Shown in pieces: positions 38,645-58,987 of a stretch of DNA of 64,000 nucleotides. The stretch is taken from positions 1,536,001-1,600,000 of the forward strand of contig OZ220696.1 of assembly GCA_965116495.1 (NCBI GenBank), in the 5' to 3' direction. Below the pieces are notes generated by a model. The model saw only the letters and a program-made list of their open reading frames with translations, was not told the DNA's origin and did no database searches. Source of the stretch: Gammaproteobacteria bacterium. GTDB taxonomy: Bacteria; Pseudomonadota; Gammaproteobacteria; Eutrophobiales; Eutrophobiaceae. The translations under genes and the position numbers were made by a program. Every line of letters starts with the position of its first letter. Within the stretch, counting starts at the first letter, position 1.

Positions 38645-39370
38645 TCAGGGAAGGACCTGGAAACGCCGGCCGTCTTCCAGAGTCAGGCCCCGGCCATCAA
38701 ACGTCGCGTTCATGCCGGTCTGGTTGGTGTTGAATGCTGAAGACTGATTTGCCGATGTCCAGTAAGTGGTGTTGAGCCTGACGGCGCCATTTTCTGATTC
38801 ATAACGGCCATAACCGGCTTCAACGCCGTTTTCATCACCGTTGACAAGAATAAGATAGCCGTCAACAAGCGCCAGCGCGCCGTTTTCCAGCTTGTACACT
38901 TCACCTTCACCCGGACCGGCCAGCTCGAAGACTTGTACCGTTCCGCTACGCATGAAGGTCAACTTCAGTTTATCATCCACGCGGCTGGCATCGACCTCAT
39001 GCTCCGTGAGCCCCCGGTAATTGAGTGGAGGGGATTTTGACGGCGCTGTGCTGATGGTTTGTTCAGCCGCCAGGTGGATGAAATCGTCACCCGCCGAGTA
39101 AGGACCTGCATGGGCCATCGAACCCTGGTCCCGGGCCGACTCACTTTTGTACTGGGCGTATTGTACAAAAATGCCCTTTTTGAACAGGAAAATCCCATTC
39201 AACGGCAAGTCTTCACCGCTTGGGGTAACCAGGCCGGTATACAACCAGAGTCCCTCAACCTGTTGTTCAAGGGAAACCGGCTGTTCCGTTTCATTGGCGG
39301 CAGGATTAGCGCAGTAAAGGATAACCAGGAGGTAGAAGATAAAAGGTTTTGCTGACAGATGTTTTCTCAT
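38645..39370 (-). CDS. Hypothetical exported protein
   Basis: 241 aa, N-terminal signal-like segment, beta-rich. Confidence 0.7.
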   Translation of the reverse strand: MRKHLSAKPFIFYLLVILYCANPAANETEQPVSLEQQVEGLWLYTGLVTPSGEDLPLNGIFLFKKGIFVQYAQYKSESARDQGSMAHAGPYSAGDDFIHLAAEQTISTAPSKSPPLNYRGLTEHEVDASRVDDKLKLTFMRSGTVQVFELAGPGEGEVYKLENGALALVDGYLILVNGDENGVEAGYGRYESENGAVRLNTTYWTSANQSSAFNTNQTGMNATFDGRGLTLEDGRRFQVLP

Positions 39371-39643: not shown

Positions 39644-42600
39644 TCAGAACAGGAAGTCGGTTGCGTCCAGGTTGGCCATGTCGAACCCGACCAGCAGGAT
39701 CGTGCCGCCGCCGTGGCTTGACAGGTCTATAGTTATTCCACCGGGAACGGATGCTCCACCAGGATAGTAGGACAGGTCCAGAGCCTCAAACCCAGGCAGG
39801 TTGAAGGCGCTGAGGTCTATTTTGTCCTTGTTATCGATGAAGGAATGGATGCCGTCGTCTCCATGGCCTGCGTCGAAGACAAAGACATCGGGGTTTCCTG
39901 CACCGTCTGCCTCACTCGACCACGAGGGCGCCCCTCCGTATAACTCATCATCTCCGGCGCCACCGTTCAAGCGGTCTGCGCCGGCGCCGCCCATCAGAAA
40001 ATCATCGCCGGCGCCCCCATTGAGCTCATCGTCACCATCGTGACCCAGCATGCGGTCGTCACCTTCATCCCCATGGAGGTAGTCGTTTCCACCATCTCCC
40101 AGGAGCAAATCACCACCGTCATTGCCGTAAATCTCATCATCGCCGGCGCCCCCCGCTAGAGTATTAGCGTTTCCATCTCCATACAAAACATCCGCAAATT
40201 CAGAACCGGATACTCCCTCAATACCGGTGAGAACATCACCCTCGGCATAACCGTCTTTGGCGATACCTTCCAGCAGGTTCACCATTACACCTGTATCCGA
40301 ATTCCAATAATCGGTTGTATCAATGCCATCGCCTCCATCCAGTTTATCAGCGCCAGCGCCACCGGCCAGCCAGTCATCACCACCATTGCCCCGGATATCA
40401 TCATTCCCGCCCAAGCCTTGAAAACCATTATTCTTGTGATTACCAATCAGTACATCGCCGTAATCAGTGCCATCAACAATTTCAACATTCCTGATAATAT
40501 CCCCCTCTGCGTGACCACCCTTGCCGGTGCCTTCCAGGAGGTTGACCGTCACGGCTGCGTCTGATTCCCAATAGCCTACCCAGTCGCCGGCGCCGGCGCC
40601 GCCCTGTAACCGGTTGGCGCCTGCATCACCTCTCAAATTATCATCGAAGCCAGACCCGGTTACGTTCTCAATACTGGTAAGGACATCACCCTCCGCAGCA
40701 CCCCCTCCAGTATTTCCATACTTCAGATCGACAAACACGCCTGCATCAGAGTCCTCATAAAGCGCCGAGTCAACACCACTGCCACCGTCCAGCCGGTCTG
40801 CGCCGGCGCCGCCCTGCAATACATCATCACCACCATTGCCGTACAACTCATCCGCACCATCCAGCCCATACAACACATTGCCAACCCCATCACCCCGTAA
40901 TACGTCGTCGTAACCCGATCCCGCCAGGTTTTCAATCGCAGTAAGCACGTCTCCCTCGGCATCCCCACCCCCCACCGTACCCGTTGCAAGGTTTATTCTT
41001 ACCCCTGCACTCGAGCCCAAGTAAGAGGCCCAATCAATACCCCTGCCCCCATCCAGCCGGTCAGCGCCCGCATTGCCGTATAACCAGTCATCACCGTCGC
41101 CGCCGTGTAACGCATCATCACCGTCATCCCCATGCAAGCTGTCAGCACCCGCACCACCGAACAGTTTATCCCGGTCCGCGCCCCCGTGCAGTTCATCATC
41201 GCCCCCATCACCATACAGGACATCCACACCGGCCTCACCAAAGAGTTGGTCATGGCCAGCGCCCCCCTGCAACTCATCATTGCCCTCATTGCCGCGCAGC
41301 TCGTCAGCGCCCGTGTTACCAAGAAGATAGTCCGCACCCGCACCACCGTGTAACACATCATCACCCCCGGCGCCCTCCAGACGATTTGCGCCGGCATCAC
41401 CCGTCAGGCTGTCCCGGTAGGCAGAGCCTGTTACGTTCTCCATACCCGTAAACGTATCTCCCTCGGCATAACCGCCTGCCGCCGTGCCCGCGGCCAGGTC
41501 CACCCGTACTCCTGCCACGGATAAGCGGTAGGACAAAGTGTCCGCGCCTGCTCCTCCATCCAGGCGGTCGGCGCCGGCGCCCCCTGCCAGTACGTCATCA
41601 CCACCGTTGCCACGCAGTTCATCAGCGCCCCCGTTACCGGCCAGCTCATTGGCGCTGTCATCACCTGTCAGCACATCCGGGAGGGCAGACCCAGCGATAT
41701 TCTCAATCCCGCTGATGACGTCACCCTCAGCATGACCACCGGCGACCGTATTGTTGTAGAGGTCAACCGTCACGCCCGTGTCCGAACGTAGGTAGACCAC
41801 CCAGTCCACCCCGCCCCCACCATCCAGCCGATCAGCGCCCGGCCCGCCTTCCAATGCATCGTTGTCGGCGCCACCCCGAAGCTCGTCATTACCCCCGACC
41901 CCGTGTAATTCATTGGGACCGTTGTCACCCGTCAACACGTCCCGATAATCAGACCCCGCGATATTCTCTATACTCGTCAGCGTATCGCCCTGGGCATGAC
42001 CACCGGCAACCGTGCTGTCAGCAAGGTTTACTGTTACACCCGCATCCGATGTCAAATAAACCGCCCAATCCAGACCGATTCCCCCATCCAACCTATCCGC
42101 GCCTGCGCCGCCTGCCAATCTATCATCTCCCCCGCTGCCCCGAAGTTCATCGTCACCCCCAAGGCCGTACAACTCATTGGCGCCCGCGTCACCCATCAAA
42201 ACATCCCGGTACTCAGAGCCCATCACATGCTCAATACCGGTGAATACATCACCTTGTGCATAGCCGCCCGTTAATGTCCCCTCCCCAAGGTTGACCGTGA
42301 CCCCCGTAGCCGACAACTCGTAGGACAACCCGTCCAGGCCGGCGCCCCCGTCCAATTGATCGACGCCACTGCTGCCCAACAGCCAGTCATCGCCATCCCC
42401 TCCCGCCAGAATATCCTCACCACCCGCACCCCAAAGCCGATCATCCCCTCCCCCGCCGTCCAACCTGTTGGTATTGCCATCACCCCACAACACGTCAGCA
42501 AAGCCCGACCCGCTCAGGTTTTCTATATTCTCAATCATGTCACCCTGCGCATCACCGCCCGCCGCCGTGCCTGCCGCCAGGTCTACCGTTACTCCCTCAT

Positions 42601-45055
42601 TCGAGCCTTGATAAGAGGCCCAGTCCAACCCCGCACCGCCATCCAACCTGTCGGCGCCGGCGCCGCCTTCCAGTCGGTTGGCAGCATCATCGCCCACCAG
42701 CACGTCATCGTGAGCAGAACCAAGGATGTTCTCAATCTCGGTCAATATGTCTCCCTCGGCATGACCGCCCTGCACAATGCCTTCTGCAAGATTGATTGTC
42801 ACCGCCGCATCCGAATCACGATACGCCGCCCAGTCCATCCCCGCATCCCCGTCCAGACGGTCCGCGCCGGCGCCCCCTTCCAGAATGTCATCACCGCCAC
42901 TGCCCCAAATCTGGTCATTGCCATCACGCCCGTTCAGGTCGTTGGCAATCGCATTGCCGACAATCACATCATCTCCCGACCCGGCCACAAGATTCTCGAT
43001 CCAGGTATCCCGTGCGATGCTCATATTGCCAATCAGGCCGTATACATCGGAGATACCTTCCGGACGCAGGTAGATGCGCTGCTCTTGGGTGTCTGTGCGT
43101 AAATCCAGTGTGTCGCTACCGCCGTTGTCGTAAATCGTGAAGGTGGTTGGGATCGTAAGGCTTTGGGGTGAAAACTCCGGGTTCTCGGGTGTGCCCACGC
43201 TTTCAAAATAGTGAATGATGCCATCTTGATTCCCAACAATGAGATCAGGATGACTATCAGCGTTCAGGTCGGCAAATTCAAGCCCTATCCAATAGCCCGC
43301 AACAGTCGCATGAAAAGGATTCTCGAAGCCTGCGCGCTGGACGAAAACCGGTTCGGTCGTTGTGCCGGTATTCTCATGATAGAGAATGTCACCATTGCTG
43401 CTTCCCACAACGAGGTCAAAATCACGGTCATTGTCAGTATCAATAAATGCAGGTGTGTTATGAAACCCTCCGCTGATATTATTGAGAGGACTGGATGCAC
43501 CGCTACGTAATACAAAATCAGGGTTGGTCGCCGTGCCGGTGTTCTCATAGTAAGGAATATCGCCCCCCTCAGTGCCAACCGCGAGGTCAAGATCACCATC
43601 GCCGTCCAGGTCGGCCAATGTAAGCGTAGACCATGCACTGATCGTAATGCCATTAAACGGATTGGCTGTGTCAGTGCGTTGTGTAAAATGGGGGACGGCC
43701 ACAGTACCGGTATTCTCGAAGTAAGCGATAGCGCCGTAGTCATATCCAATGATGAGGTCATGGTCACCATCGCCGTCAAGGTCAGTGAAGGTCGGGGCGC
43801 TGTAAGACAGCACCGAAATGCCCTCCAAAGGGTTGTTTACGCCGGTGCGTTCGGTAAAATCAGGGTTGGCAGGCGTGCCGATGTTCTCATAGTAATACAG
43901 CAAGCCGGTGTCATTACCAACCACCAAATCCGGGTCACCGTCACCGTCAAGGTCGGTCAATGCCGGTTTAACCGTCGGTGTGCCGGAGTCACTCGGTGCT
44001 TGTATATCAGAAAAGGGATTGGCCTCCCCGGTCCATAATCTGAAGTATTCACCCAGGTAACCGTCCACATTTGATTGATAACCGTAAATGGTATCGCCTG
44101 TGTTGATCGTGTCAGGCGCGCCATAGAGATCCTGGATGGCGATGATGTCTGCAATCATCGGGGTCACGAACTTGGCAAAGCTGGCATTGATATATGTATT
44201 CTCTCCTTGGGAAAAATAAGACATCACCGTGGCCTGATAGGAATCTTTGAGGAATACGTTGTCGCGGCCGTATACACTGAGAAGATCGTATGGACCGGCA
44301 TGACCCAGACCCAAGGCGTGACCGATCTCGTGAATATAGGTCACGAAAGCGTTGCTGACCACACCTGTGCCATATGCAAACAACCAACCTGATGGCACGT
44401 TGACCAGGGACACAATATCCCCGTTAATGAACCGGCTGATGCCGAGAGAGCTTTCCCCTTCATCATCAAAGATGATACGGGCAGTATCATCTTCGACGAA
44501 CCTGAAAGTAATACCGGTCACGTTAGTCCAAGACTCAAGCGCCCAGCGCACGACTTGCTGTCCCTCTTCGGTGAGGGCGGTAATATTGACACTCAGCATG
44601 CCGCCAGGCTCCAGATCATGAGCAAACCTTGATCCCTTTTGCCATTCTTCCTGGAAACCATCCGTCAGAAACTCGGCAATCTCGTCATAACTGCCCTCCG
44701 GGATCGTGTTCTCGGCCAGCGCAAGCTCGTAGCTACCCGTGAAAGTATCATCGTAACTGCCTATGCACAGATAATAAGTCCCGCTGACGTCGGGGCTGAA
44801 AATGAGCCTTGCGCCGGCAGGAATCAAGACGCCGGAGGCCACCTGGTTGCCGGAGGCATCAAACAGCCCCAATACAGCCCAATCAACACCGCCGAGAGTA
44901 ACATCGTATATCGTCTCCGCGCTCAGTTCGACTTTGATCCAGTCTTTGTCACCCACCGAATCGAGCGTTCCCTGGAACATGTCTCCAAGAGATAGGGTAT
45001 ATTGCGTTTGCGCATTCGCGCCGGCATCACCCTTGTCTTCTTTGATAACAGCCAT
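39644..45055 (-). CDS. Giant secreted protein A: PPC-like domain + M10 metalloprotease + FG-GAP repeats + RTX repeats
   Basis: HEIGHALGLGH, Met-turn TVMSY, DLDGDGDxDL repeats, many GGxGxDxL nonapeptides, C-terminal DFLF. Confidence 0.92.
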   Translation of the reverse strand: MAVIKEDKGDAGANAQTQYTLSLGDMFQGTLDSVGDKDWIKVELSAETIYDVTLGGVDWAVLGLFDASGNQVASGVLIPAGARLIFSPDVSGTYYLCIGSYDDTFTGSYELALAENTIPEGSYDEIAEFLTDGFQEEWQKGSRFAHDLEPGGMLSVNITALTEEGQQVVRWALESWTNVTGITFRFVEDDTARIIFDDEGESSLGISRFINGDIVSLVNVPSGWLFAYGTGVVSNAFVTYIHEIGHALGLGHAGPYDLLSVYGRDNVFLKDSYQATVMSYFSQGENTYINASFAKFVTPMIADIIAIQDLYGAPDTINTGDTIYGYQSNVDGYLGEYFRLWTGEANPFSDIQAPSDSGTPTVKPALTDLDGDGDPDLVVGNDTGLLYYYENIGTPANPDFTERTGVNNPLEGISVLSYSAPTFTDLDGDGDHDLIIGYDYGAIAYFENTGTVAVPHFTQRTDTANPFNGITISAWSTLTLADLDGDGDLDLAVGTEGGDIPYYENTGTATNPDFVLRSGASSPLNNISGGFHNTPAFIDTDNDRDFDLVVGSSNGDILYHENTGTTTEPVFVQRAGFENPFHATVAGYWIGLEFADLNADSHPDLIVGNQDGIIHYFESVGTPENPEFSPQSLTIPTTFTIYDNGGSDTLDLRTDTQEQRIYLRPEGISDVYGLIGNMSIARDTWIENLVAGSGDDVIVGNAIANDLNGRDGNDQIWGSGGDDILEGGAGADRLDGDAGMDWAAYRDSDAAVTINLAEGIVQGGHAEGDILTEIENILGSAHDDVLVGDDAANRLEGGAGADRLDGGAGLDWASYQGSNEGVTVDLAAGTAAGGDAQGDMIENIENLSGSGFADVLWGDGNTNRLDGGGGDDRLWGAGGEDILAGGDGDDWLLGSSGVDQLDGGAGLDGLSYELSATGVTVNLGEGTLTGGYAQGDVFTGIEHVMGSEYRDVLMGDAGANELYGLGGDDELRGSGGDDRLAGGAGADRLDGGIGLDWAVYLTSDAGVTVNLADSTVAGGHAQGDTLTSIENIAGSDYRDVLTGDNGPNELHGVGGNDELRGGADNDALEGGPGADRLDGGGGVDWVVYLRSDTGVTVDLYNNTVAGGHAEGDVISGIENIAGSALPDVLTGDDSANELAGNGGADELRGNGGDDVLAGGAGADRLDGGAGADTLSYRLSVAGVRVDLAAGTAAGGYAEGDTFTGMENVTGSAYRDSLTGDAGANRLEGAGGDDVLHGGAGADYLLGNTGADELRGNEGNDELQGGAGHDQLFGEAGVDVLYGDGGDDELHGGADRDKLFGGAGADSLHGDDGDDALHGGDGDDWLYGNAGADRLDGGRGIDWASYLGSSAGVRINLATGTVGGGDAEGDVLTAIENLAGSGYDDVLRGDGVGNVLYGLDGADELYGNGGDDVLQGGAGADRLDGGSGVDSALYEDSDAGVFVDLKYGNTGGGAAEGDVLTSIENVTGSGFDDNLRGDAGANRLQGGAGAGDWVGYWESDAAVTVNLLEGTGKGGHAEGDIIRNVEIVDGTDYGDVLIGNHKNNGFQGLGGNDDIRGNGGDDWLAGGAGADKLDGGDGIDTTDYWNSDTGVMVNLLEGIAKDGYAEGDVLTGIEGVSGSEFADVLYGDGNANTLAGGAGDDEIYGNDGGDLLLGDGGNDYLHGDEGDDRMLGHDGDDELNGGAGDDFLMGGAGADRLNGGAGDDELYGGAPSWSSEADGAGNPDVFVFDAGHGDDGIHSFIDNKDKIDLSAFNLPGFEALDLSYYPGGASVPGGITIDLSSHGGGTILLVGFDMANLDATDFLF

Positions 45056-45130
45056 TTGCTCACCCCCTGTCTGAACCGAAAAGCGTCATTTTCATCCTGC
45101 TATTCATGTCTGTCGGCTGCTTGCGTTATT

Positions 45131-46396
45131 TTACGATCTGGATGGGCTTGCCACCTGTTCCGGGGCGCCTTCGGAGTTCTGGGCTGTCTGCTGCGAGGTA
45201 AGCGCGGCCGCGCGCTTGCTGGCCGCCAGCTCTGTCTGCACGTATGTCATCAGGCTGGGGATGCCAGGCTCACACAGATCATCGCCTGCCGGTTGCCAGA
45301 TATAGCCCAGGTTTGCGAGTTGGTCCAACTGCGCATCAGCCGTTTGTGCCGTTACGCCGGTTAGGGCAACCAGGTGATCTGACAGGTCCATGTAGCCGGC
45401 TGTTTCCTGTCCCACAAATGTACCGGCTACGGCGCCGGCGGCCTGCAGCAAGCCCTGTTTGCGCAGCTCGCGGAAACGATCTCCGTAGTAAGCGGTCCTG
45501 CTGGCCTCAAACCTTGGCCTGGCCGCATCGACAATACTTGCCTGCACACGGAAACGCATGGTGTCCACCATGGCATGGCACAGCGCTTCCCCCCAGAGTT
45601 GGATGAAGTAGGGGTAACGCTGGCTTTCCTGCACTACGCGGTCCAGGACATCCTTGTCAAAGGTGATATCTGCCTCAGCCAGCGGAGAGACCAGCGCCTC
45701 AACAGTAGCTTCCAGACTCAGGCGGCCAATGCCGATTTTTTCTGCCCGGTTCCAGAAGGTGGCGCTCATCTGATTCAAGTGATCTCTCAAATTTGGCGTC
45801 CCGGCGATGGCCAACAGAAAGGGAGCGCCCTGTTTGCGCACTTGCTGGCTGGCGTTCAACAGCGTATGACCCACCTCCGCGGCTAGCGTATGCGCCTCGT
45901 CCAGCGCTACTACCAACGGGCGTTTGCGGCAGCGGGCGACCAGCATTTGAACAAGATGGCGACGTTTGATGTTGTCCATCTGGTCAGGCGTCATACTGTC
46001 CCAGCGGGCGCCGATGGCCTGCAGGTCGATGCTGAGCCCGGAGGGAGTAATGGATGTCAGGAACTTCCCGATTACACTATCGTCATAGAGCAGGTGGCTT
46101 GCCAGATCGGTAACATTTCCAATCTCCGCGGGTGTCAGGTCCAGCGTGTCGGTGTCCTGATCTTCGCACTGTCGGCGGAAGGTTTCGAGCAGCACGGTTT
46201 TGCCGTTACCGCGCGGCCCATAGATCACTGCGTCGGCAGGCACCTGACGGTTACTCAGCAGGCGTTGCAGAAAGCCTTGCAACACACGCAAATCACCGTC
46301 CCTGCCAGCAAGCACAGGAGGCAGAGCACCGCTACCCGGCACAAACAGGCTCAGCAGGTTCTTTGTGAAGTCAGGGTCGATATAGCTCGTTGTCAC
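45131..46396 (-). CDS. AAA+ ATPase (AAA_16/ORC-like)
   Basis: FVPGSGALPPVLAGRD, GPRGNGKT, VALDEAH, YPYFIQLWG; GTG start 46396 inferred, 7 nt after TGcTATACT. Confidence 0.82.
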   Translation of the reverse strand: MTTSYIDPDFTKNLLSLFVPGSGALPPVLAGRDGDLRVLQGFLQRLLSNRQVPADAVIYGPRGNGKTVLLETFRRQCEDQDTDTLDLTPAEIGNVTDLASHLLYDDSVIGKFLTSITPSGLSIDLQAIGARWDSMTPDQMDNIKRRHLVQMLVARCRKRPLVVALDEAHTLAAEVGHTLLNASQQVRKQGAPFLLAIAGTPNLRDHLNQMSATFWNRAEKIGIGRLSLEATVEALVSPLAEADITFDKDVLDRVVQESQRYPYFIQLWGEALCHAMVDTMRFRVQASIVDAARPRFEASRTAYYGDRFRELRKQGLLQAAGAVAGTFVGQETAGYMDLSDHLVALTGVTAQTADAQLDQLANLGYIWQPAGDDLCEPGIPSLMTYVQTELAASKRAAALTSQQTAQNSEGAPEQVASPSRS

Positions 46397-46497
46397 AATG
46401 ACGAGTATAGCACGGTAAGACAACGACTTGCCCTCATACAGGGGCCGGCAGAAAAGCAAGTTGCTACGGAATTAAACTCCCTGATGCCTGCAAATTA

Positions 46498-49400
46498 TCA
46501 GAACAGGAAGTCACTCGCATCCAGGTTGGTGATGTCGAAATCGACCAGCAGGATCGTGCCACCGTCGTGGGCTGACATGTCTATTATGAGCCCAGATATG
46601 GACACATTTGGACGGGATGTGGCGGAGGACAGGTTGATATCATCAAATCCAGACAGGTTGAAGGCGCTGAGGTCGATTTTATCTTCATCGTTGACAAAGT
46701 AGATGGTATCGTCTCCATGGCCGACATCGAAGATAAACACGTCAACGCTTCCATCACTCTCATTAGACCACTCAATATGTCCGGCCAAGTAATCGTTTCC
46801 GACACCACCGTCTAAGAGGTCGGCACCAGCGCGGCCTATCAAGACGTCATGGCCTCTCCCCCCGTGAATATTATCATCGCCGTCGTATCCGAAGATGGAA
46901 TCATTACCCTCATCACCGTAAATGATGTCATCGCCGCCATATCCGAGGATGGCATCATTACCCTCACCACCGTAAAGGGTGTCATTGCCATCTCCCCCGT
47001 GGATTTGATCATCCCCCTCACCCCCATAGATGCTATCATTGCCGATAAGACCGTGCAGAAAGTCATCACCGCCATTGCCGTGCATCTCATCGTCACCAGC
47101 AAAGCCTAGCAGGGAATTATCGCTGTTGTCACCTGTCAATACATCTCCTTGATTGGAACCTCTTATGCTCTCAATATTGACAATCACATCACCTTCGGCG
47201 TGACCACCCTTGCTTGTACCCTCTTCGAGATTTATGGTCACTCCGGTATCCGAAGCCAGATATGATGCCGTATCGGAACCCCCACCACCGTCCAGCATAT
47301 CCGCGCCGGCTCCTCCAACCAGCCAATCATCTCCACCATTTCCGTGAAGCTCATCGTCTCCAGCATAACCGTAAAACGTGTTATTTTTGTGATCACCAGT
47401 CAATACATCTTTGTAATCAGTACCACTAACGTCCTCAACACCTGTAATAACATCCCCTTCTGCACTACCTCCCTTGCCGGTACCGTCCAAGAGGTTGACT
47501 GTGACACCCACATCTGACGGCAAATAGTCTATCCAGTCTATCCCTTCACCTCCGTCCAACCGATCAGCGCCGCCGCCACCATGAAGTCTGTCGTCGCCAG
47601 CGCCCCCTACAAGGTGATTAGCGCCGTCATCACCTCTTATTGCATCTGCATAATCAGTGCCAATCACATTCTCAATACTTCTGATCACGTCACCTTGCGC
47701 ATGACCGCCTTCAACCGTATTCTCTACCAGATTGACGATGATGCCTTGGTCCGAATCCTCATACGACAGCGTATCAATACCCTCTCCGCCGTCCAACTGA
47801 TCGGCCCCAGCGCCACCCTGTAATACGTCATCACCAGCATTGCCGTACAACTCATCCGCGCCGTCCAACCCATATAACATATTGCCAACCCCATCACCCC
47901 GTAACACGTCGTCGTAACCGGAACCCATCAGGTTTTCAATCGCAGTGAGCACGTCTCCCTCGGCATCCCCGCCCCCCACCGTACCCATCGCAAGGTTTAT
48001 TCTCACCCCTGCGCCCGAGCCCAAATAAGAGACCCAGTCAAGGCCCCTGCCCCCATCCAGCCGGTCGGCACCCGCATTGCCGTATAACCAGTCATCGCCG
48101 GCACCGCCCTCCAACTCGTCATCACCGTCATCCCCATACAAGCTGTCAGCACCCGCACCACCGAACAGTTGGTCTTTATCTACTCCCCCGTGCAGTTCAT
48201 CATTGCCCCCATCACCATGCAGGACATCCGCGCCCGCGCCACCGTGTAATGCATCATCACCCCCGGCGCCCTCCAGACGATTTGCACCGGCATCACCCGT
48301 CAGGCTATCCCGGTAACCAGAGCCTGTTACGTTCTCCATACCTGTAAACGTATCCCCCTCGGCATAACCGCCTGCCGCCGTGCCCGCGGCCAGGTCCACC
48401 CGTACTCCTGCCACGGATAAGCGGTAGGACAAAGTGTCCGCGCCTGCTCCTCCATCCAGGCGGTCGGCGCCGGCGCCCCCTGCCAGTACGTCATCACCAC
48501 CGTTGCCACGCAGTTCATCAGCGCCCCCGTTACCGGCCAGCTCATTGGCGCTGTCATCACCTGTCAGCACATCCGGGAGGGCAGACCCAGCGATATTCTC
48601 AATCCCGCTGATGACGTCACCCTCAGCATGACCACCGGCGACCGTATTGTTGTAGAGGTCAACCGTCACGCCCGTGTCCGAACGTAGGTAGACCACCCAG
48701 TCCGGCCCGCCCCCACCATCCAGCCGATCAGCGCCCGGCCCGCCTTCCAATGCATCGTTGTCGGCGCCACCCCGAAGCTCGTCGTTGCCTCCTGCGCCGT
48801 ACAGTTCATTGGCTCCACTGTCGCCAGTCAATATATCCTCATAACCAGACCCTGCGATATTCTCTATCCCGGTAAACGTGTCACCTTGTGCATGACCGCC
48901 AACCGCCGTGTTGTCAGCCAGATTCACTGTTACACCCGCATCCGATGTCAAATAAACCGCCCAATCCAGACCGGCACCCCCATCCAATCGGTCTCCACCG
49001 GTGCCGCCCTCCAGCACATCGTCGCCTTCATTGCCCCGAAGTTCATCGTCACCCCCAAGGCCGTACAACTCATTGGCACCAGCATCACCCGTCAATACAT
49101 CCCGGTACTCAGAGCCCATCACATGCTCAATACCGGTGAATACATCACCTTGCGCATCACCGCCCGCTGATGTCCGCTCCCCAAGATTGACCGTGACCCC
49201 TGCAGCCGACAACTCGTAGGACAACCCGTCCAGGCCGGCGCCCCCATCCAACTGATCGATGCCACTGCTGCCTAACAACCAGTCATTGCCATCTCCTCCC
49301 ACCAGAACATCCTCACCACCCGCGCCCCAAAGCCGATCATCCCCTCCTTTGCCTTCCAACCTGTTGGCATTGCCATCACCCCGCAACACGTCAGCAAAGC

Positions 49401-51954
49401 CCGACCCGCTCAGGTTTTCTATATTCTCAATCACGTCACCTTGCGCATCACCGCCCTCTGCCGTGCCTGCCGCAAGGTCTACCGTTACTCCCTCATTCGA
49501 ACCTTGATAAGAGGCCCAGTCCAACCCCGCACCGCCATCCAGCCTGTCGCCGCCGCTGCCTCCCTCCAGCCGATTGTCCTCATCGTCACCCACCAGCACA
49601 TCATCGTGGGCAGAACCAATGATGTTCTCAATCTCAGTCAATACGTCTCCCTCGGCATGACCGCCCTCTGCCGCGCGTTCCGCCAGGTTAATTGTTACCC
49701 CTGCATCCGAATCACGATACGCCGCCCAGTCCATCCCCGCATCCCCGTTCAGACGGTCCGCGCCGGCGCCACCTTGCAGGATGTCATCACCGCCACTGCC
49801 CCAAATCCGGTCATTGCCTGCACGCCCGTTCAGGTCGTTGGCAATCGCATTGCCGGCAATCAGGTCATCTCCGGAACCGGCAATAACGTTCTCTATCCAG
49901 GTATCCCGTGCAATAATCACGTTCCCAATCAGGCCGTATACATCGGAGATACCTTCCGGACGCAGGTAGATGCGCTGGTCGTTCGTATCCGTGCGCACGT
50001 CCAGAGTATCGGTGCCGCCGTTGTCGTAAATCGTGAAGGTGGTTGGTCTAGCGAGGCTTTGGGGTGAAAATTTGGGGTTCTCCACTGTGCCGGTATTTTT
50101 ATAATAAGCAATGACGCCATCCTGATTGCCAACAATGAAGTCAAGATTGCCATCACCATTCAGATCACCAAATTCAATCCCAAGAAAAAAACCTGCATTG
50201 ATTCCTTGGAAAGGATTATCAAAATCTCTGCGCTGGGTGAAATCCGGCTCGGTTGTTGTGCCGGTGTTCTCGAAATAGAGGACGCCACCACCTCTATTCC
50301 CGACGATGAGGTCAAAATCGTCGTCATTATCAACATCGACAAATACGGGCGAGTTATAAGAGCCTTCATTGATGTTGTTAAGAGGACTGGACGTACCGGT
50401 CCGTAATGCAAATTCAGGATTGGTCTTCGTGCCGGTGTTCTCATAGTAAGGAACGTCACCGTCATTGGTGCCGACAGCAAGGTCACTATCGCCGTCGCCA
50501 TCCAGATCTGCAAATGCGAGTGTGCTCCATGATCCCATTGTGATATTGCTAAACGGATTGGCCGCGTCGGAGCGTTGTATAAAGTGGCCAGAGGTCGCAG
50601 CGCCGGTATTCTCGAAATAAGCGATAGCATCATTGCCATCACCAACGATGATGTCCAGGTCACCATCGCCGTCAAGGTCGGTGAAGGTCGGGGCGCTGTA
50701 AGACTGCACCGAAATGCCCTCCAAAGGGTTGTTTACGCCGGTGCGTTCCGTAAAATCAGGGTTGGCAGGCGTACCGATGTTTTCAAAGTAATACAGCAGG
50801 CCAGTGTTATTACCGCCCACAAGGTCCAGGTCACCATCACCGTCAAGGTCGGCCAATGCCAGCTTAAGAGCTTGATGATCAACGTTACTTGGCACTTCTA
50901 CACTGAAGAAGGGATTTTCCTCCCCGGTCCATAATCTGAAGTATTCACCCAGGTAACCGTCCACGTTAGATTGGTAGCCGTAAATGGTATCGCCTGTGTT
51001 GATTGTGTCAGGCACACCGTAAAGATCCTGGATGGCGATGATGTCCACTATCATTGGAGTGACAGATTCAGCAGAGCTTGCTCTCAAGTAGGTGTTATCA
51101 CCTTGGTTTACATACGACATTATCGACAGCTGATCAGAGTCATTCACGAAGATGTTGTGATAGCCGTAATAAAATGGACTGCCGTTGTAGGGACCGGGAT
51201 GACCGAGGCCGAGAGCATGACCAGTTTCATGAAAATAGACATAGAAGGTGTAACTATCAATCGTTGTTCCATGCTCAATGAGATGGAATTCCGGAACACT
51301 CACCATCGAAGATTCGATAAGCCCATCACCGTGTACAACTCCCGCGTGTGCCCAATCTAAATCATCAGTAAATGTAATATGGGCAGTATCATCATCGACA
51401 AACTCGAAAGTAATGCTGGTGACGCTGTCCCAAGCCTCAATTGCCCATCGGGCTAGTCGTTGACCCTCTTCAGTCAGGGCGGTGATATTAACGGTCAAAC
51501 TACCGCCAGGTTCAACGTCAAAAGCGATCCTTGAGCCCCAGTAGCCATCGGTCAGATACCCGGCAATCTCGTCATAACTACCCACAGGGATGGTGTTTTC
51601 AGTGAGAGCAAGCTCATAGACACCCGTGACAGCATCATCGTAACTGCCTACCCCGAGATAATACGTCCCACTGACACTCGGACTGAAGATCAGCTTTGTG
51701 CCGGAGGGAGTGTAGCCACCAGAGACTATCCAGTTCCCGGAAGCATCAAACAGCGCCAATTCGGCCGAATCGACATCCTCAACGGTAAAGCCGAGAGTAA
51801 AATCGTATATCGTCTCCGCGCTCAGTTCGACCTTGATCCAGTCTTTGTCACCCCCTGAATCGAGCGTTCCCTGAAATATGTCTCCCAGCGAAATCGTGTA
51901 AGAGGTTCCAGCAGCCGCACCGGCATCGCCTCTGTCTTCTTTAATCACGGCCAT
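46498..51954 (-). CDS. Giant secreted protein B, paralog of A (M10 + FG-GAP + RTX)
   Basis: HETGHALGLGH, SIMSY, FG-GAP and RTX repeats, C-terminal DFLF. Confidence 0.92.
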   Translation of the reverse strand: MAVIKEDRGDAGAAAGTSYTISLGDIFQGTLDSGGDKDWIKVELSAETIYDFTLGFTVEDVDSAELALFDASGNWIVSGGYTPSGTKLIFSPSVSGTYYLGVGSYDDAVTGVYELALTENTIPVGSYDEIAGYLTDGYWGSRIAFDVEPGGSLTVNITALTEEGQRLARWAIEAWDSVTSITFEFVDDDTAHITFTDDLDWAHAGVVHGDGLIESSMVSVPEFHLIEHGTTIDSYTFYVYFHETGHALGLGHPGPYNGSPFYYGYHNIFVNDSDQLSIMSYVNQGDNTYLRASSAESVTPMIVDIIAIQDLYGVPDTINTGDTIYGYQSNVDGYLGEYFRLWTGEENPFFSVEVPSNVDHQALKLALADLDGDGDLDLVGGNNTGLLYYFENIGTPANPDFTERTGVNNPLEGISVQSYSAPTFTDLDGDGDLDIIVGDGNDAIAYFENTGAATSGHFIQRSDAANPFSNITMGSWSTLAFADLDGDGDSDLAVGTNDGDVPYYENTGTKTNPEFALRTGTSSPLNNINEGSYNSPVFVDVDNDDDFDLIVGNRGGGVLYFENTGTTTEPDFTQRRDFDNPFQGINAGFFLGIEFGDLNGDGNLDFIVGNQDGVIAYYKNTGTVENPKFSPQSLARPTTFTIYDNGGTDTLDVRTDTNDQRIYLRPEGISDVYGLIGNVIIARDTWIENVIAGSGDDLIAGNAIANDLNGRAGNDRIWGSGGDDILQGGAGADRLNGDAGMDWAAYRDSDAGVTINLAERAAEGGHAEGDVLTEIENIIGSAHDDVLVGDDEDNRLEGGSGGDRLDGGAGLDWASYQGSNEGVTVDLAAGTAEGGDAQGDVIENIENLSGSGFADVLRGDGNANRLEGKGGDDRLWGAGGEDVLVGGDGNDWLLGSSGIDQLDGGAGLDGLSYELSAAGVTVNLGERTSAGGDAQGDVFTGIEHVMGSEYRDVLTGDAGANELYGLGGDDELRGNEGDDVLEGGTGGDRLDGGAGLDWAVYLTSDAGVTVNLADNTAVGGHAQGDTFTGIENIAGSGYEDILTGDSGANELYGAGGNDELRGGADNDALEGGPGADRLDGGGGPDWVVYLRSDTGVTVDLYNNTVAGGHAEGDVISGIENIAGSALPDVLTGDDSANELAGNGGADELRGNGGDDVLAGGAGADRLDGGAGADTLSYRLSVAGVRVDLAAGTAAGGYAEGDTFTGMENVTGSGYRDSLTGDAGANRLEGAGGDDALHGGAGADVLHGDGGNDELHGGVDKDQLFGGAGADSLYGDDGDDELEGGAGDDWLYGNAGADRLDGGRGLDWVSYLGSGAGVRINLAMGTVGGGDAEGDVLTAIENLMGSGYDDVLRGDGVGNMLYGLDGADELYGNAGDDVLQGGAGADQLDGGEGIDTLSYEDSDQGIIVNLVENTVEGGHAQGDVIRSIENVIGTDYADAIRGDDGANHLVGGAGDDRLHGGGGADRLDGGEGIDWIDYLPSDVGVTVNLLDGTGKGGSAEGDVITGVEDVSGTDYKDVLTGDHKNNTFYGYAGDDELHGNGGDDWLVGGAGADMLDGGGGSDTASYLASDTGVTINLEEGTSKGGHAEGDVIVNIESIRGSNQGDVLTGDNSDNSLLGFAGDDEMHGNGGDDFLHGLIGNDSIYGGEGDDQIHGGDGNDTLYGGEGNDAILGYGGDDIIYGDEGNDSIFGYDGDDNIHGGRGHDVLIGRAGADLLDGGVGNDYLAGHIEWSNESDGSVDVFIFDVGHGDDTIYFVNDEDKIDLSAFNLSGFDDINLSSATSRPNVSISGLIIDMSAHDGGTILLVDFDITNLDASDFLF

Positions 51955-51999
51955 TTATCAGCCCGTCCCCTCTGCCTGAATTCAAACAACAGCGCTTTT

Positions 52000-52138
52000 T
52001 ATTAGACCATATACGATGAAACTTTGGAATGTAGTCTTCCAGGAATTCACGCTTGTAGCCGACAGGCTCCCGTTCATAAATCGGACGGCGTACATAGTCC
52101 CGGAAGGCGAGGCTAGAATCGAAGTCGATATCAATGAG
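52000..52138 (-). pseudogene. Short gene remnant, possibly from a Fic-family protein
   Basis: Start-less frame reads LAFRDYVRRPIYEREPVGYKREFLEDYIP; resemblance recalled, not verified. Confidence 0.35.
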
Positions 52139-52159
52139 CTATAGGCAGCCCAGGGTCTT

Positions 52160-54078
52160 TCAGAAGATAAAGTCGTTCTCATTAATCAGCGCGGCGTCTA
52201 CTCCTGTCAGGGTGACTTGACTGTCCGTGTCTGTCACCTGAACCACCGCATCGCCATCGCTGTTGTTTGACACGGTCAGGTCGGCATACTGCAAGTCCAG
52301 GGCAGTGAAGTCCATCAGGTCGGTCCCATCTTCAAAATCCGTTATCCGGTCCTGACCAAAGCCCGGGCCCGTGAACGCGAACTCTTGCTCCGACGCAGGC
52401 TCGCTCTCGAGCGCATCCCCCGCCTCCCGATTGATGAACACAAAATCGTCCTCTCCCACCTGCCCGGCATCAACGCCTGCCAGAACGATGGCGTCCTTTG
52501 TGCCATCCACGCTTATCACGGCGCTACCGCCGGCGTTGTTCGCGACCGACAAGTCACTCCACTGCAGGCCGTGCAGCTTCAGCAGATCGGTTCCATCCTC
52601 GAAATCGCCGATGCGGTCCCGGCCAAAGCCCGGTTGCTCATAGACGAAAAAATCCGCACCCTCACCACCGTAGAGAATATCCTTGCCCTCGCCCCCTTGC
52701 AGACGGTCCCGGCCATCGCCGCCATACAACTCATCGTTGCCGTTCTCACCCCAGAGCTTGTCCCGGCCCTTGCCGCCATACAAGGTGTCATGGCCCTTGC
52801 CGCCATACAGCCGGTCATTCCCCACACCGCCGTACAAGGTGTCTGAGTGTTTATCACCCCAGAGACGGTCATTGCCGGCGTTGCCATGCAGAATGTCATT
52901 ACCCAGGTTGCCCGATATCCGGTCATTGTTACCCAGACCTTCAATGCGGTCGTCCCCGGCCAGACCGTTGATGACATCGGCGCCGGTCGTGCCGCTCAGC
53001 CGGTTCGCTTCCGAGGTGCCATTGATAACCGTTCTGGCCGGTGCGGGCGCCTTCGGGTCGTCGAACACGAAACGGTCGGCGCCGGCCCCACCGGTCATCA
53101 CGTCGTTGCCCGCCCCCGCGATCAGGACGTTATCGGCCTCATTGCCCGTCAAACTATCATTGCCACTGCCCGACGTGGCATTCTCGATCACCACACCGTT
53201 GGCGATGACATAGCCACCAGGGATTTTCCATGCCCAGGAAACGTAGCCCCCGCCGCCGGGTTCATACTCAAGCGTGGCCGCGCGCAAGTCGATCACGGCA
53301 TTGGCGGCGCCTGTGTACTCAATCGTGTCAATCCCGCCGGTATCCCAGATAGCGTGATAGCCGTTTGCCGCCGCGCGGGTGGCGGCCATTGTGTAAACGT
53401 CATCGCCCGCCGCGTGGGTGGTGTTGGCGCCATACATGTTTTGCAGGGCGGCAATGTCCAGTGCACCAAACGTGGCAATGGCAGAGCCATCGCCTGGATT
53501 GTCTGGGCGGCCGTTCCAGCTACCGTTATAGGTGCTGTTGTACGATGTCACGGTGAATATCGTCTGGTCCAGCCCGTAACCGGCTTTTATGACCTTGGTG
53601 GAGTTGCCCGTATCATGCGGGTGGCCCAAGCCCAGACCATGCCCTATTTCATGGATGACGGTGAGGTAGAACCTCCCTCCCTGGTCGAATTGGCCGCCGG
53701 GTTTATCACTCCAGTCGCGGTCTCTGGTGTTTGCCATGCCTTCCTTGCCATCGCCGTTAATGGGGAAACGAAACTGACCCGATTGCAGGCCGCGGCCAAT
53801 GTGTTCACCACCCAGAATTATGCTGTTCTCTTTGCTGCCATCGAAAACCCCGAATTTGAGGTCGGCAGAATCCCAATCCGTGGTGAGCTGGAAATCAACG
53901 TTGATAAAGGTTTCCAGATTTTCGAAGACCAGATTTGGGTTTTCTCATAGTCGGTCATATTACGGGCGTGGTACCACTGCATCGCAAGGTCACCTTCCTT
54001 GAATAAATACACCAGGACCGGACCCGATATATTCAGCTTGTGTTTTCCCTCAATGGCGTCAACAGGTTTATCGCTCAT
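52160..54078 (-). pseudogene. Serralysin-like M10 protease D with RTX repeats, frameshifted near 53930
   Basis: ATG 54078 (GGAG RBS) MSDKPVDAIEG..YEKTQIW switches frame to VFENLETFINVDF..EGMANTRD; HEIGHGLGLGH; Met-turn reads TVTSY; ends DFIF. Confidence 0.8.
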
Positions 54079-54442
54079 AATCATCTCCAGCCGTGGTGCT
54101 ACAGGCGGCTTCAGGACAGGGCGGGCGGTTCTAGCATAAATATCACTCCAGTCCACCCGGTTTGCGTCTTCGTGCCGCGTATGCGGCGGGGGGATAACAT
54201 CATGGCTGATCGCCGAAAGACGGTTCCGGTCAAAGCGCACAGGCGCAGGCGACCGCAGTAACCGATACAGCCCCGTACTCAGTGCGGGGCTTTTGAACTT
54301 TGCCCTCATCCTTCGGCACTATCGTATATAATTCCCCAATAAAACATGAAATTATGCGGCAGCCGGAACCGATACCAGCACCAGTATGGCTCCGGGCTAT
54401 GACTTTTAGTGAATGGGACGAGCGTGTGGGGATTAACGAGAT

Positions 54443-57400
54443 ATGGCTACTATCAGAGAGAACAACGGTGATGCATCGCCAAATTCCGGAACTCAATACG
54501 AGCTGTCTGTCGGAGATGTATTTGAGGGAAAGCTGAACCCCGTCAGCGACAAGGACTGGCTTCGCGTCGAACTGGCCGCCGGGACGATTTACGACGTTAT
54601 TCTGAATGGCGTCTATTCGGCCCAACTCACCATCCTCGATGCACAGGGTAATGAGATGGCCTACGGCGTCAGTAACTTCGATTACACGAAAATCAAGATA
54701 TTCACCCCGGATGCCAGCGGCACATATTACATCGGCATAGCCAGCAGCAATGCCGAGCACACGGCTAACTACCAGTTATCGTTTGACGAGAATCCGATCA
54801 CAACCGTCAGCCATGATGTGATTGCCGAGTATATGTCAAGTCGCTGGCCCAATGAGCAGGCTTTTGACGTGGTGTCCGGTGGTGTACTGACCGCCGATAT
54901 CACTGCCCTGAACGAAGCAGGACAACAACTGGCCCGCTGGGCGCTGGACGCGTGGAGTAACGTTTCCGGCATCACGTTTAAATTGGTTGCTGACGATGAT
55001 GCCCACATTACCTTTGACGACAACCAGGACAACGAAGCGTCTGCAACCGCCAATCGCAGCACCAGTGAAGGTTTCATCGTGTCTGCGCGGATCAACGTGC
55101 CGGCGAGCTGGATCCCCGACGACGGGGCCAGGATGGACAGCCATGTTTTCTATGCTTATTTGCATGAGATCGGCCATGCCCTCGGCCTTGACCACCCGGG
55201 CCCTTACAACGCGAATTACCTGGCTTTAATCGACAAGATATTCCTGAATGACACGTACCAGACAACGGTGATGTCATATTTTCGCCAGGACCATGACCAG
55301 TTCGTAGACGCCAGTTTTGCCTATCCCGTGACACCGATGGTCGCGGATATTATCGCGATACAGGGCCTGTATGGCGTACCCGATGACCTTAATCCGGGTG
55401 ATACGATTTACGGCTATGGCGCCGATGTCGAAGGCTACCTGGGCGAACTGTTCGAGCTTTGGACCGGCGAGGGGGATTCATCTTTCGAAAACCCCGTCAC
55501 TCTGACGCTGTACGACAGCGGTGGTATCGATACCCTGGATCTGCGCACCGACAGCGCCGACCAACAGGTTGACCTGAGACCCGAGAGGTTCTCGGACGTG
55601 TACGGTCTGGTCGGTAACCTGATCATCGCGCAGGACACGTTGATAGAAAACTTCATCAGTGGATCCGGGGATGACGTAGTGACCGGTAACGATGCCGCGA
55701 ACTACCTGCAGGGACGGGACGGTAACGACGATCTGAGCGGCGGCCGCGGCGACGATGTGCTGGAAGGCGGCGCCGGCGCGGACCGGCTGGATGGGGGCCC
55801 CGGTACGGACTGGGCGTCCTACCACGGGTCGAATACTGCTGTGACAATCGATCTTGGGCAGAAAACGCTGACCGGAGGCCATGCTGAGGGCGACGTGCTG
55901 GTCAATATCGAGAACATCATCGGCTCTGGTTATGCCGATGTCCTGACCGGGAATGACGGCGCCAACAGCCTGGAAGGGGGTGCGGGCGCGGACCGGTTGG
56001 AAGGGGCGCCGGTGAGGATACCGCCTCGTACGCGCAGTCGGCTGCCGGGGTGACCGTGCGCCTGCACTCGGGTGAGGTACGGGGCGGTGACGCCGTAGGC
56101 GATACCTTCGCGGCGATGGTGACGGTCGAGTATATTGACGGTGACGGTGACACCCGGCAGGAAACCGTTCCCGACATTGAGCATCTCCTGGGCTCGAAGC
56201 ACGCCGATACCCTGGCCGGCGACAGCCGAGCCAACCGGCTGGCAGGGGGCGACGGGGATGACAGGTTGTACGGCGGTCCCGGAGGCGGTGATGATGTGCT
56301 GCTGGGCGGACCCGGCGCCGATGCCCTGTTTGGCGGTATCGGTGACGATGTAATGGAAGGGGGGGCGGATGCGGACACGCTCAGAGGCGGGCCCGGCGCC
56401 GATACGGCTTCGTATGCGCAGTCGGCTGCCGGTGTTGAAGTCCGTCTGTATGACGGTACGGTCAAGGGAGGTGATGCCGAGGGGGATGTGCTGGATGGGA
56501 TTGAGAACCTGACCGGGTCTGCTTATGCGGACACCCTGGAAGGTGATAGTAGCGCCAACCGCCTGGACGGCGGACCCGGGATAGACTGGGTATCCTACCG
56601 GGGCTCGGATGCGGCGGTGACGGTGAAGCTCAGGGACGGCACCGGGGCAGGCGGTCATGCCGAGGGTGATGCCATTGTCAACGTTGAGAATGTAGCAGGC
56701 TCTGATTACAACGACGTGCTGGGAGGCGACAGTGGAGCCAACCATCTCGCAGGTGGGGACGGCAATGACGGGCTCTGGGGCAGCAGTGGCGATGACGTCC
56801 TGGAGGGGGGCGCGGGGACAGACCGGATGTTCGGCGGTATCGGTGTGGACTGGGTGATTTATACAGGCTCGGATGCAGGGGTGACGGTGAACCTTGAGGA
56901 CGGCACCGGGGCAGGCGGACACGCCGAAGGCGACACCATTGCCGAGGTTGAGAATGTAAACGGATCCGGCTTCAACGACGTGCTGCAAGGCAATGAAGGT
57001 ATCAACCGGCTGAACGGTGGTGACGGCGACGATGAGCTGGAGGGCGGCGAGGGTGACGACATCCTGGAAGGTGGCGCAGGCGCCGACCGATTGGATGGCG
57101 GTAACGGGATTGATACGGCAATTTATCAAGCTTCAGATGCGGCAGTGACGGTGAATCTCGGCACCGACACGGCGGCCGGAGGCCATGCACAAGGCGATGT
57201 GTTTACCAGCATCGAGAGAATCATCGGTTCAATATATGGCGATAACCTGGTTGGGGGGAGCGGCATTGATCGGCTTGATGGTGCTGAGGGTGACGATGTA
57301 CTGCAAGGCGGCGACGGCGGCGACCGGCTGGACGGCGGTGCTGGTTCGGACACGGTAAGCTATCGGAATTCAACTGCAGCGGTAACAGTGAACTTCGGCA

Positions 57401-58584
57401 ATGACACATTTGCCGGCGGCCATGCCGAGGGTGATACGGTCGTCAACGTCGAAAATCTGGAGGGATCGAACTACGATGATGTGCTGACCGGCGACAGCAA
57501 CGCAAACCGGCTGTACGGCGGTGAGGGCAACGACATCCTGGAGGGTGGTGCGGGTATCGACCGGCTGGATGGCGGACCGGGGGTGGACACGGTGTCATAT
57601 GAAAACTCCAGTGATGGGATATTGGTTAACCTGCTGTTCAACAAGGGTTCGCTAAATGCCTACAACGACAGGAGCGAAGAAATTGTCAATATCGAAAACG
57701 TGATTGGGTCTGAATACTGGGATTCCATCAGGGGAGACAGCGGTGAGAATGATTTGTACGGTCGTGCCGGCAACGACGATCTTAATGGTGGAGCAGGTAA
57801 CGACAGACTGTTTGGTGAGGATGGTGAAGATCAGCTATGGGGGTTGACCGGCGCCGACCGGCTGGATGGTGGAGATGGTGTAGATATTGCGGTTTACTGG
57901 GTTTCCGACACTGCAGTAACCATAAGCCTCGAAGATGGGACGGGACAAGGTGGCCATGCCGAGGGCGATGTGCTGGTCGCCGTGGAAAATCTCTGGGGGT
58001 CCGACCACGATGATACGCTGTCCGGCGATAGCGGCGCCAACCGTTTGTACGGCGGCAAGGGCAACGATGATCTGCGTGGCAACGGCGGCAACGACATACT
58101 GGAAGGTGATGTTGGCGCAGACCGGCTGGACGGCGGACCGGGTATGGACATGGTCTCTTACAGTTTGTCAAATGAAGGCGTAACGGTAAAGCTGGGGGAA
58201 GACGTCATAGAAGGGGGTCATGCCGAGGGCGACACATTCGTCAGCATAGAGGGTATAGAGGGGTCCGGCTATGATGACATACTGGCAGGCGATAACGGCG
58301 CCAACAGACTGGCGGGTGGATACGGTGATAATGTATTGGAAGGTGGCGACGGGCCGGATCAATTCATCTTCGATTGGGTCAACGGCGACGACACCATCCT
58401 GGATTTCGCCGATAATGAAGACCTCATAGACCTCAGCGCAACCGACCTATCCGGTTTTGATGCGCTTATCCTGTCATCCGACTCCAACGGCGTGACGATA
58501 CACATGACGACGTCAGGCGGCGGGTCGATATTTCTGGAGGGCTTCGACATCGCCAACCTCGACGCATCGGACTTTATCTTCTGA
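54443..58584 (+). pseudogene. M10-RTX paralog C without the FG-GAP insert, split by a 1-nt frameshift at 56003-56006
   Basis: HEIGHALGLDH, TVMSY; adding one G to GAAGGGGCGCC restores EGGAGEDTASYAQSAAGVTV and joins the two ORFs (~1380 aa); ends DFIF. Confidence 0.85.
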
Positions 58585-58662
58585 CCTGCAACCATTCTCA
58601 AATCAATAACAGAGGTAACTTGCCTGCAAACAGAGTAAAACATTCTGACCCAGGTAGATTAC

Positions 58663-58767
58663 ATGACCGCACGTATCATTTATGATGATATTGCCGACTA
58701 CCTGACCGACGGCTACTGGGAGTGGCGAGGGGAGGCACGGCGCGCTGACCCCCCCCCGGTAACCTGA
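58663..58767 (+). pseudogene. Remnant of a further M10-RTX paralog
   Basis: IYDDIADYLTDGYWEWRG matches SYDEIAGYLTDGYWG (B) and SYDEIAEFLTDGFQEEW (A). Confidence 0.7.
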
Positions 58768-58896
58768 TCCACCTGCAACTTAGAAAATTCCCTATAATCA
58801 ACAGTCGATCAATCTTATGGAACAATAATTAACGTGATAACTGTTTTATTATATAATTGTTTTTATATTTATAATCAATAAGCTATGAATAATATC

Positions 58897-58987
58897 TGGC
58901 GGAGAGAGAGGGATTCGAACCCTCGATACGCTATTAACGTATACACACTTTCCAGGCGTGCGCCTTAAGCCACTCGGCCATCTCTCC
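58897..58987 (-). tRNA. tRNA-Ser(GGA)
   Basis: GGAGAGATGGCCGAGTGG..CTGGAAA anticodon loop, long variable arm, GGTTCGAATCC, 3' GCCA. Confidence 0.97.

Follow-up and report, generated by a model that had tools for sequence, protein, structure and literature searches.

The locus described here raises two questions: what giant proteases encoded side by side do for the bacterium that probably secretes them, and how the parts of these proteins came to be combined. It lies in a gammaproteobacterium of the family Eutrophobiaceae, whose genome is a single closed 4.34-Mb contig (GenBank assembly GCA_965116495.1, contig OZ220696.1). The window, as used below, is the whole stretch of 64,000 nucleotides that was analysed (contig positions 1,536,001–1,600,000), and coordinates refer to it unless stated otherwise.

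The array is situated between a 241-aa gene (38645–39370) and the tRNA-Ser(GGA) gene (58897–58987, minus strand), and fills a variable stretch on the 3′ side of the latter; its order is A, AAA ATPase, B, D, C and stub. Gene A (39644–45055, minus strand) encodes 1803 aa and gene B (46498–51954, minus strand) 1818 aa; both reading frames are open, and the architecture of B is as in A (HETGHALGLGHP, SIMSY, DFLF). They are separated by an AAA ATPase gene (45131–46459, minus strand, 442 aa), overlooked in the preliminary description, which lies upstream of a related protease in the congeners G008 and G012 too. Gene D (52160–54078, minus strand) is a serralysin-like gene of a distant lineage, frameshifted near 53930 into 49 + 589 codons. 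Gene C (54443–58584, plus strand) comprises PPC, M10B and RTX parts without a propeller and is frameshifted near 56000 into 518 + 859 codons. The stub (58663–58767, plus strand) is the start of an M10 gene, 34 codons long, cut where a dispersed ~48-nt element resembling the end of an insertion sequence is found (58746–58793, plus strand). The two intact paralogs of about 1800 aa, the two frameshifted genes and the 34-codon remnant of the preliminary description are thus borne out, as are the DF(L/I)F endings: DFLF in A and B, DFIF in C and D. A scan for promoters and terminators gave results at chance level.

The proteins A and B consist of a PPC domain, an M10B protease, an inserted five-repeat FG-GAP propeller, a long RTX region and the C-terminal DFLF, in this order; the PPC domain and the FG-GAP insert had escaped earlier notice. 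Residues 1–118 of A (44702–45055, minus strand) form a PPC-type β-sandwich resembling the collagen-binding domain of ColG/ColH (Foldseek TM(target) 0.75–0.80, rmsd 2.5–2.9), with a profile match to 3jqw that is weak in sequence (E 0.0098). By predicted fold and this weak match, the domain may be likened to a collagen-binding one. Of the 25 members that were aligned, 23 give a match to the Pfam PPC family; A itself does not. Residues 119–312 (44120–44701, minus strand) constitute the serralysin-type catalytic domain, in which residues ~195–241 are the most variable. A conserved junction (44021–44119, minus strand) follows, 94% alike in A and B and including identical tracts of 26 and 46 nt. The propeller (residues 346–632; 43160–44020, minus strand) has five 57-aa repeats and is predicted to be closed and five-bladed. 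The RTX region is built of ~88-aa units over about 1100 residues, ending in DFLF; its repeats score 312–327 bits with PF00353.

The zinc motif HExxHxxGxxH is found in A, B, C and D (HEIGHALGLGH in A). It is followed immediately by Pro in B, C and D and by Ala in A, and about 30 residues downstream by a Met-turn with Tyr in A (TVMSY), B (SIMSY) and C (TVMSY). For serralysins, the Pro is expected and the Met-turn pattern is S-[TVLI]-MSY, as described in PMC6891781. A structure model of A residues 1–745, built from a 32-row alignment, has a pLDDT of 86. Its residues 118–745 match the alkaline protease of P. aeruginosa (1kap) with Z 32.9 and rmsd 2.2 Å over 309 residues, the insert being skipped, and solved serralysins in general with Z 32–33 across about 310 residues. 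As modelled, A has the two-domain serralysin fold, comprising a catalytic domain and a calcium β-roll. The cut-off of NCBIfam NF035945 (500 bits) is missed by A (330), B (360), the C piece (212) and the D piece (170), in A and B because the insert splits the match. The gene products would work like serralysins and share most features of the family; to judge from their sequences, A and B are serralysin-type zinc proteases with intact catalytic motifs and predicted proteolytic activity.

In the model, residues 344–633 make up a separate domain within the intermediate (calcium-binding) domain of the serralysin part, and its best matches are five-bladed GH43/GH159 propellers (Z 16–17). Foldseek points to likeness with fungal GlcNAc lectins and CRTAC1, and the sequence matches integrin alpha-L weakly (E 0.002). 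Five repeats are counted in 149 of 152 inserts; integrin-alpha and PVL-lectin propellers have seven. The propeller reading rests on the alignment-based model, the single-sequence fold being unusable (pLDDT 40); an Atlas search with the propeller returned generic FG-GAP clusters only. If the model is right, a serralysin loop can accept a domain of 290 residues. Among open-licence papers without their supplements, no description was found of the inserted propeller, of a five-bladed FG-GAP propeller or of the module shuffling set out below.

The genome contains 20 RTX loci with two or more strict RTX motifs, of which 8 have an M10 domain; this is the genome-wide count of paralogs called for in the preliminary description. 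RTX proteins generally leave the cell by type I export (PMC3034196, PMC6891781), and by this general rule A and B, with their RTX nonapeptides before an uncleaved C-terminal signal, are likely to be exported through a PrtDEF-type system; type I secretion had been proposed in the preliminary description. The PrtD, HlyD and TolC-like genes form an operon 2 Mb from the array (genome positions 3669905–3674909). PrtD (675 bits, cut-off 510) and HlyD (372, cut-off 209) are each the genome's only one over the cut-off, and the adjoining TolC-like gene is below it (156, cut-off 225). A C-terminus of Asp and three hydrophobic residues, which we take to be the PrtD-type signal, occurs in 10 of the 1984 genome ORFs of at least 300 aa, and 7 of these 10 are RTX ORFs. 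As stated previously, the array itself contains neither a type I secretion gene nor an inhibitor gene. Searches for the inhibitor Inh gave 0 in this genome (G000) and in G022 with a positive control genome, so the linkage to exporter and Inh that is usual, not universal, among serralysin genes is absent here. LapG was also absent from the genome (0/1, control positive), and no LssB-class transporter exceeded the cut-off, the exporter being of the PrtD class; the term adhesin, in its LapA sense, accordingly finds no support. RNA evidence amounts to one 261-nt contig of depth 2.9 from one RNA run. Four large PPC-RTX genes without a protease, one of them frameshifted, adjoin the sole PrtDEF operon (G000:C1:3637111–3674909; L203–L206, L191). 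Elsewhere, a ~90-codon gene (L208, G000:C1:4008749–4009018) joins a PPC start directly to a DFLF C-terminal signal and probably descends from a giant RTX gene by internal deletion.

The break in C falls in a short G run. Intact orthologs are found in G022 (1384 aa) and G020 (1383 aa), and in runs X6, X7 and X8, from three other studies, the length differs at the break and fits an unbroken frame by indel count alone, stop codons not being considered; it follows that C died recently. Gene D has neither PPC domain nor propeller and is 78% alike to the genome's own paralog at genome positions 900398–904723 (L194); their lineage is 44–47% alike to proteins of Phaeobacter, Seohaeicola and Amylibacter. 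Thr replaces Met in the Met-turn of both (TVTSY in D, TVTSN in the paralog), several close homologs keeping Met. This methionine is reported to be important for the active site (PMC3427221), and with its TVTSN the paralog may be inactive. L194 (G000:C1:900398–904744, 1441 aa) further contains Calx-beta domains, a linker rich in Pro and Glu, and an unannotated repeat that occurs twice.

In the stub, codons 1–28 match the start of an M10 domain and the remainder is the dispersed 48-nt repeat. Its closest relative, locus L127 of G018 (G018:C2:3283900–3293000), is itself split by ~2.7 kb of other DNA within the protease domain. The 48-nt element occurs 6 times in this genome and is matched in 12 of the 23 genomes of the genus, mostly where unrelated genes meet. 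Across the genus (loci L210–L236) it marks junctions of defence, toxin-antitoxin and ATPase cargo, and in several cases another short repeat, beginning TGACCTGCCCC or TGACATGCCCC, comes after it. At L214 two inverted ends of the element stand head to head, presumably as in insertion-sequence relics; G000 yielded no IS3-type transposase motifs, and no transposase for the element was found in this genome. Four more broken relatives of the array genes are present elsewhere in the genome.

The history of the array was approached with a quick tree of 94 protease domains (SH-aLRT support). B is placed with genes of G022/G008 (support 93), C with genes of G022/G020 (100) and D, on a long branch, beside the 900-kb paralog (100); no supported position emerges for A. 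Eight G010 copies form one clade (94), from which it follows that true tandem birth occurs in the genus; at G010:C1:2049000–2080000 (L091, L092) five intact M10-RTX genes of 1302–2096 aa, without a propeller, stand in tandem, all of them from one species-specific clade. Birth-and-death evolution, as proposed in the preliminary description, therefore stands at the level of the genus, with its 0–16 copies, species-specific clades and four additional broken relatives, and fails for the array as one paralog series, because B, C and D are each more closely related to genes elsewhere. Among the 16 congeners examined, 7 have the 241-aa flanking gene 1.3–18 kb downstream of this tRNA, and among 20 congener stretches at the tRNA site an M10 gene is present in 0 and an RTX gene in 1. 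The tRNA-Ser site is a variable cargo site, and the array consists of older lineages gathered there. A general link between RTX genes and tRNA genes is weak, most loci lying tens of kb from a tRNA. An argument for horizontal transfer based on the identical proteases of G020 and G002 was considered and rejected, the neighbouring DNA of these genomes being 96.5–98.7% alike as well.

The surroundings of the array are of several kinds. A low-GC defence block (20489–29413) has type I restriction-modification genes enclosing a GmrSD gene and a RhuM fragment, and a MazEF-type pair. Repeated Rieske oxygenase, MFS, glycine-cleavage-T/FAD oxidoreductase and homocysteine methyltransferase genes occupy 34–36244, their order shuffled among congeners; together with a creatininase–TPR fusion (36772–38565) they suggest the use of methylated amines. 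An intact DDE transposase gene (61463–62821) separates two DUF6644 genes, which are direct neighbours in G002.

The protease domain has matches in 20 of 22 congeners, 1–16 each; G013 and G017 have none, so the family is dispensable. Other genera of the family gave weak M10 matches in 6 of 103 genomes, which differs from a single-copy architecture widespread in free-living relatives, the pattern named earlier as contrary evidence. The inserted propeller is present in 11 or more of the 19 congeners from which stretches were fetched (80 in all, a subset of the matches). It occurs in 0 of 82 M10 ORFs in 79 JGI loci, 7 of these ORFs carrying a propeller elsewhere, and a class-wide search, scoring at most 3 candidates per genome, matched 3 of 400 other genomes, in the propeller part only. 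Within these searches the propeller insertion is found in this genus only. In the fragmented G017 assembly the protease-plus-propeller query has 54 matches, but the protease by itself and PrtD have none: it holds many FG-GAP proteins without a protease. Direct evidence on habitat is one run of a related strain, labelled sponge metagenome, in which a 10.7-kb contig holds the whole of C at 84–95%; the animal-associated life proposed at the outset is thus likely, with a sponge as host. No flagellin was found.

A and B have exchanged sequence. Their proteases are 59% identical, with dS 1.9 and dN/dS 0.15, and in the RTX region a 427-nt tract has one difference and dS 0. The tract lies at 41460–41887 in A (minus strand; 78 + 348 nt identical to B) and at 48358–48785 in B (minus strand; ends approximate). 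The longest run of silent identity is 140 codons, as against at most 48 in 10,000 shuffles, which, together with the double contig depth there, establishes gene conversion between A and B. Accelerated divergence of the protease finds no support: what separates A from B is old divergence, held under purifying selection and redistributed by recombination and gene conversion. The statement in the preliminary description that the RTX regions stay similar as the proteases diverge holds overall (RTX 80%, protease 59%, propeller 68%) and breaks down over A residues 1441–1720, where the RTX region is 50–68% alike.

A pairwise comparison of modules covered 6555 pairs from the 115 of 216 rows with full architecture. 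The protease is below 75% in 11 of the 28 pairs with a propeller of at least 90%, and the propeller is below 75% in 4 of the 29 pairs with a protease of at least 90%. P0032 and P0033 are 92–95% alike on both flanks of a protease that is 56% alike. P0035 combines the protease (97%) and C-terminus (99%) of B with the propeller of P0052 (94%), its propeller being 69% alike to that of B; P0032 carries the propeller of A (93–94%) with a different protease (57%). Five mosaic triplets were found, and all four PPC × propeller combinations occur among P0270/P0032, P0033, P0035 and P0052. Most mosaic partners are metagenome proteins, known from protein sequence alone.

Trees agree with this picture. They were made from the 60 rows closest to A or B among 110 non-duplicate ones. 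Of the 30 protease splits with support, 22 are at odds with the propeller tree, whereas the odd/even-column controls gave 3 of 28 and 0 of 20; the AU test had 2000 replicates, flagged by the program as too few. Protease halves conflict with each other in 8 of 43 splits and with propeller thirds in 20/41 to 34/43. Propeller thirds also conflict mutually (14/37 to 17/41), so swaps are not limited to module borders. Breakpoints cluster near A residues 278–354 and 627–660, with others near 50–140 and within the first blades. Pooled over 25 disjoint pairs, dN/dS reaches 0.36 in the protease as a whole and 0.57 in the part of it that varies most, which precedes the zinc helix; both are below 1, and the raised value is suggestive of selection for diversity, short of proof. 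A, B and their relatives, as read from their sequences, have mosaic module histories brought about by recombination.

It is exceedingly improbable that the paralogs, the breaks or the mosaics arose through faults in sequencing or assembly. In favour of this, X1 and X2 may be the source sample, and short contigs break at the tracts shared by A and B, so that the protease of A cannot be linked from them to its own propeller. However, X1 and X2 contigs bridge the breaks in both C and D with 0 differences, which rules out long-read error at the frameshifts; the genome is one contig; and contig depth is about double at the shared tract, which speaks against misassembly. The reads agree with the assembly, so the misassembly raised as a possibility at the outset is not found; A–B hybrid joints in reads, with sides of 20–21 letters, were left out of the evidence. 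Of the mosaics, P0035 is on a 3.7-Mb contig, and full-length members number 3 in the cluster of P0032 and 5 in that of P0033.

The reading to which we give somewhat better than even chances is that A and B are proteases which are exported, tethered to their substrate and directed at matrix or surface proteins of the host, with cutting and binding parts reassorted by recombination. The C-terminal signal would be read by PrtD and the RTX region folded by calcium outside the cell; the PPC domain and propeller may tether the enzyme to a collagen- or glycan-rich substrate, and sponge matrix or surface proteins are the likely targets. Homologous recombination would be seeded by the conserved junction DNA, new combinations would be retained since binding and cutting change, and copies would be lost by frameshift and by truncation at the repeated element. 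Feeding offers a plainer account, which we regard as rather improbable: general proteases, secreted and active, whose recombination, duplication and loss are neutral by-products of repeated DNA in a sheltered symbiont, the variants being equivalent. Pooled dN/dS below 1 everywhere, conversion in the RTX region too, many broken copies and a copy number of 0–16, breakpoints inside modules and the peptide- and amine-using genes near the array are all consistent with it. Neutral turnover does not readily explain why variation peaks in the segment aligned to the edge-strand region of PrtC (dN/dS 0.57 vs 0.24–0.34), why pN exceeds pS in several close pairs, why the protease domain tends to move whole (the 8/43 conflicts above) or why very different alleles are kept in one scaffold, as in P0032 and P0033.

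An unlikely reading makes A and B surface-anchored protease-adhesins, the RTX stalk holding the protein on the cell and the propeller binding host cells in the manner of integrins. The length of the RTX region, the integrin, lectin and CRTAC1 likenesses of the propeller and the same PPC start in several RTX genes without a protease agree with it, but the binding domains are N-terminal, no anchor is among the features examined, and LapG and an LssB-class exporter are lacking. More doubtful still are defensive proteases, which would cut host immune or phagocytosis proteins or the peptides of competitors and vary to track their targets. The array does sit among defence cargo, the cleft is variable, and serralysins are reported to break down host proteins and so escape phagocytosis (bioRxiv 10.64898/2026.08.06.743379); however, the pooled dN/dS is below 1, and the collagen-binding-like domain suggests matrix as the target.

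If A and B are substrate-tethered proteases, recombination among copies would let the bacterium retune what is digested, which bears on the means by which uncultured bacteria of sponges gain entry to the host matrix, feed on it and recognise it. A more far-reaching proposal, possible though with the balance of probability against it, is that the genus has a polymorphic protease system: an exchangeable propeller in a serralysin scaffold, with alleles of protease, propeller and PPC domain reassorted via the junction DNA, and strain-specific pairs tuned to the sponge host and helping to set host specificity. If the variants are equivalent, this is an ordinary expanded family of secreted proteases. 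B and P0035, like P0032 and P0033, are natural pairs differing in one module, which makes the roles of protease and propeller directly testable.

Among known systems, the LapA-type retention mechanism, with LapG, served for comparison. LapA-type RTX adhesins are likewise giant type I substrates with repeats; A and B differ in having a catalytic domain, with no LapG and no LssB-class transporter over the cut-off in the genome. Clostridial ColG and ColH also join a metalloprotease to substrate-binding modules, and their collagen-binding domain matches the PPC fold; P. aeruginosa Mep72 is described as a metzincin with carbohydrate-binding domains (PMC4334185). Unlike A and B, these belong to other protease families or secretion routes, and their binding domains are C-terminal. 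Among alphaproteobacterial M10/RTX proteins (Roseibium; Rhodobacteraceae), that of Roseibium aggregatum L014 has a protease 49% alike to A and FG-GAP repeats in the same chain, but in this group the propeller follows the β-roll and is not inserted.

The closest likeness is to the M10B serralysins (AprA of P. aeruginosa, serralysin of Serratia, PrtC of Erwinia/Dickeya), which share the fold (Z 32–33), HExxHxxGxxH, the Met-turn with Tyr of A, B and C, the intermediate domain, the RTX roll and an exporter of the PrtD class. E. chrysanthemi is reported to have several serralysin paralogs per genome, as here, and the typical size is given as ~480 aa, A and B being about four times longer (PMC3034196). 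The extra PPC domain, the propeller in the intermediate domain, the mosaic paralogs, the absence of an Inh gene, an exporter 2 Mb away and NF035945 scores of 330–360 against 500 set the present proteins apart. Vibrio MARTX toxins are described as having a conserved RTX scaffold and variable central modules, with variants made by recombination (PMC6315884). Pfam and NCBIfam gave no MARTX repeats, cysteine protease or effector families for A and B, where other domains account for each region. The parts swapped among the relatives of A and B, unlike those of MARTX, are alleles of one and the same set of domains. RTX proteases in several copies, and RTX proteins that recombine, are already known in principle.
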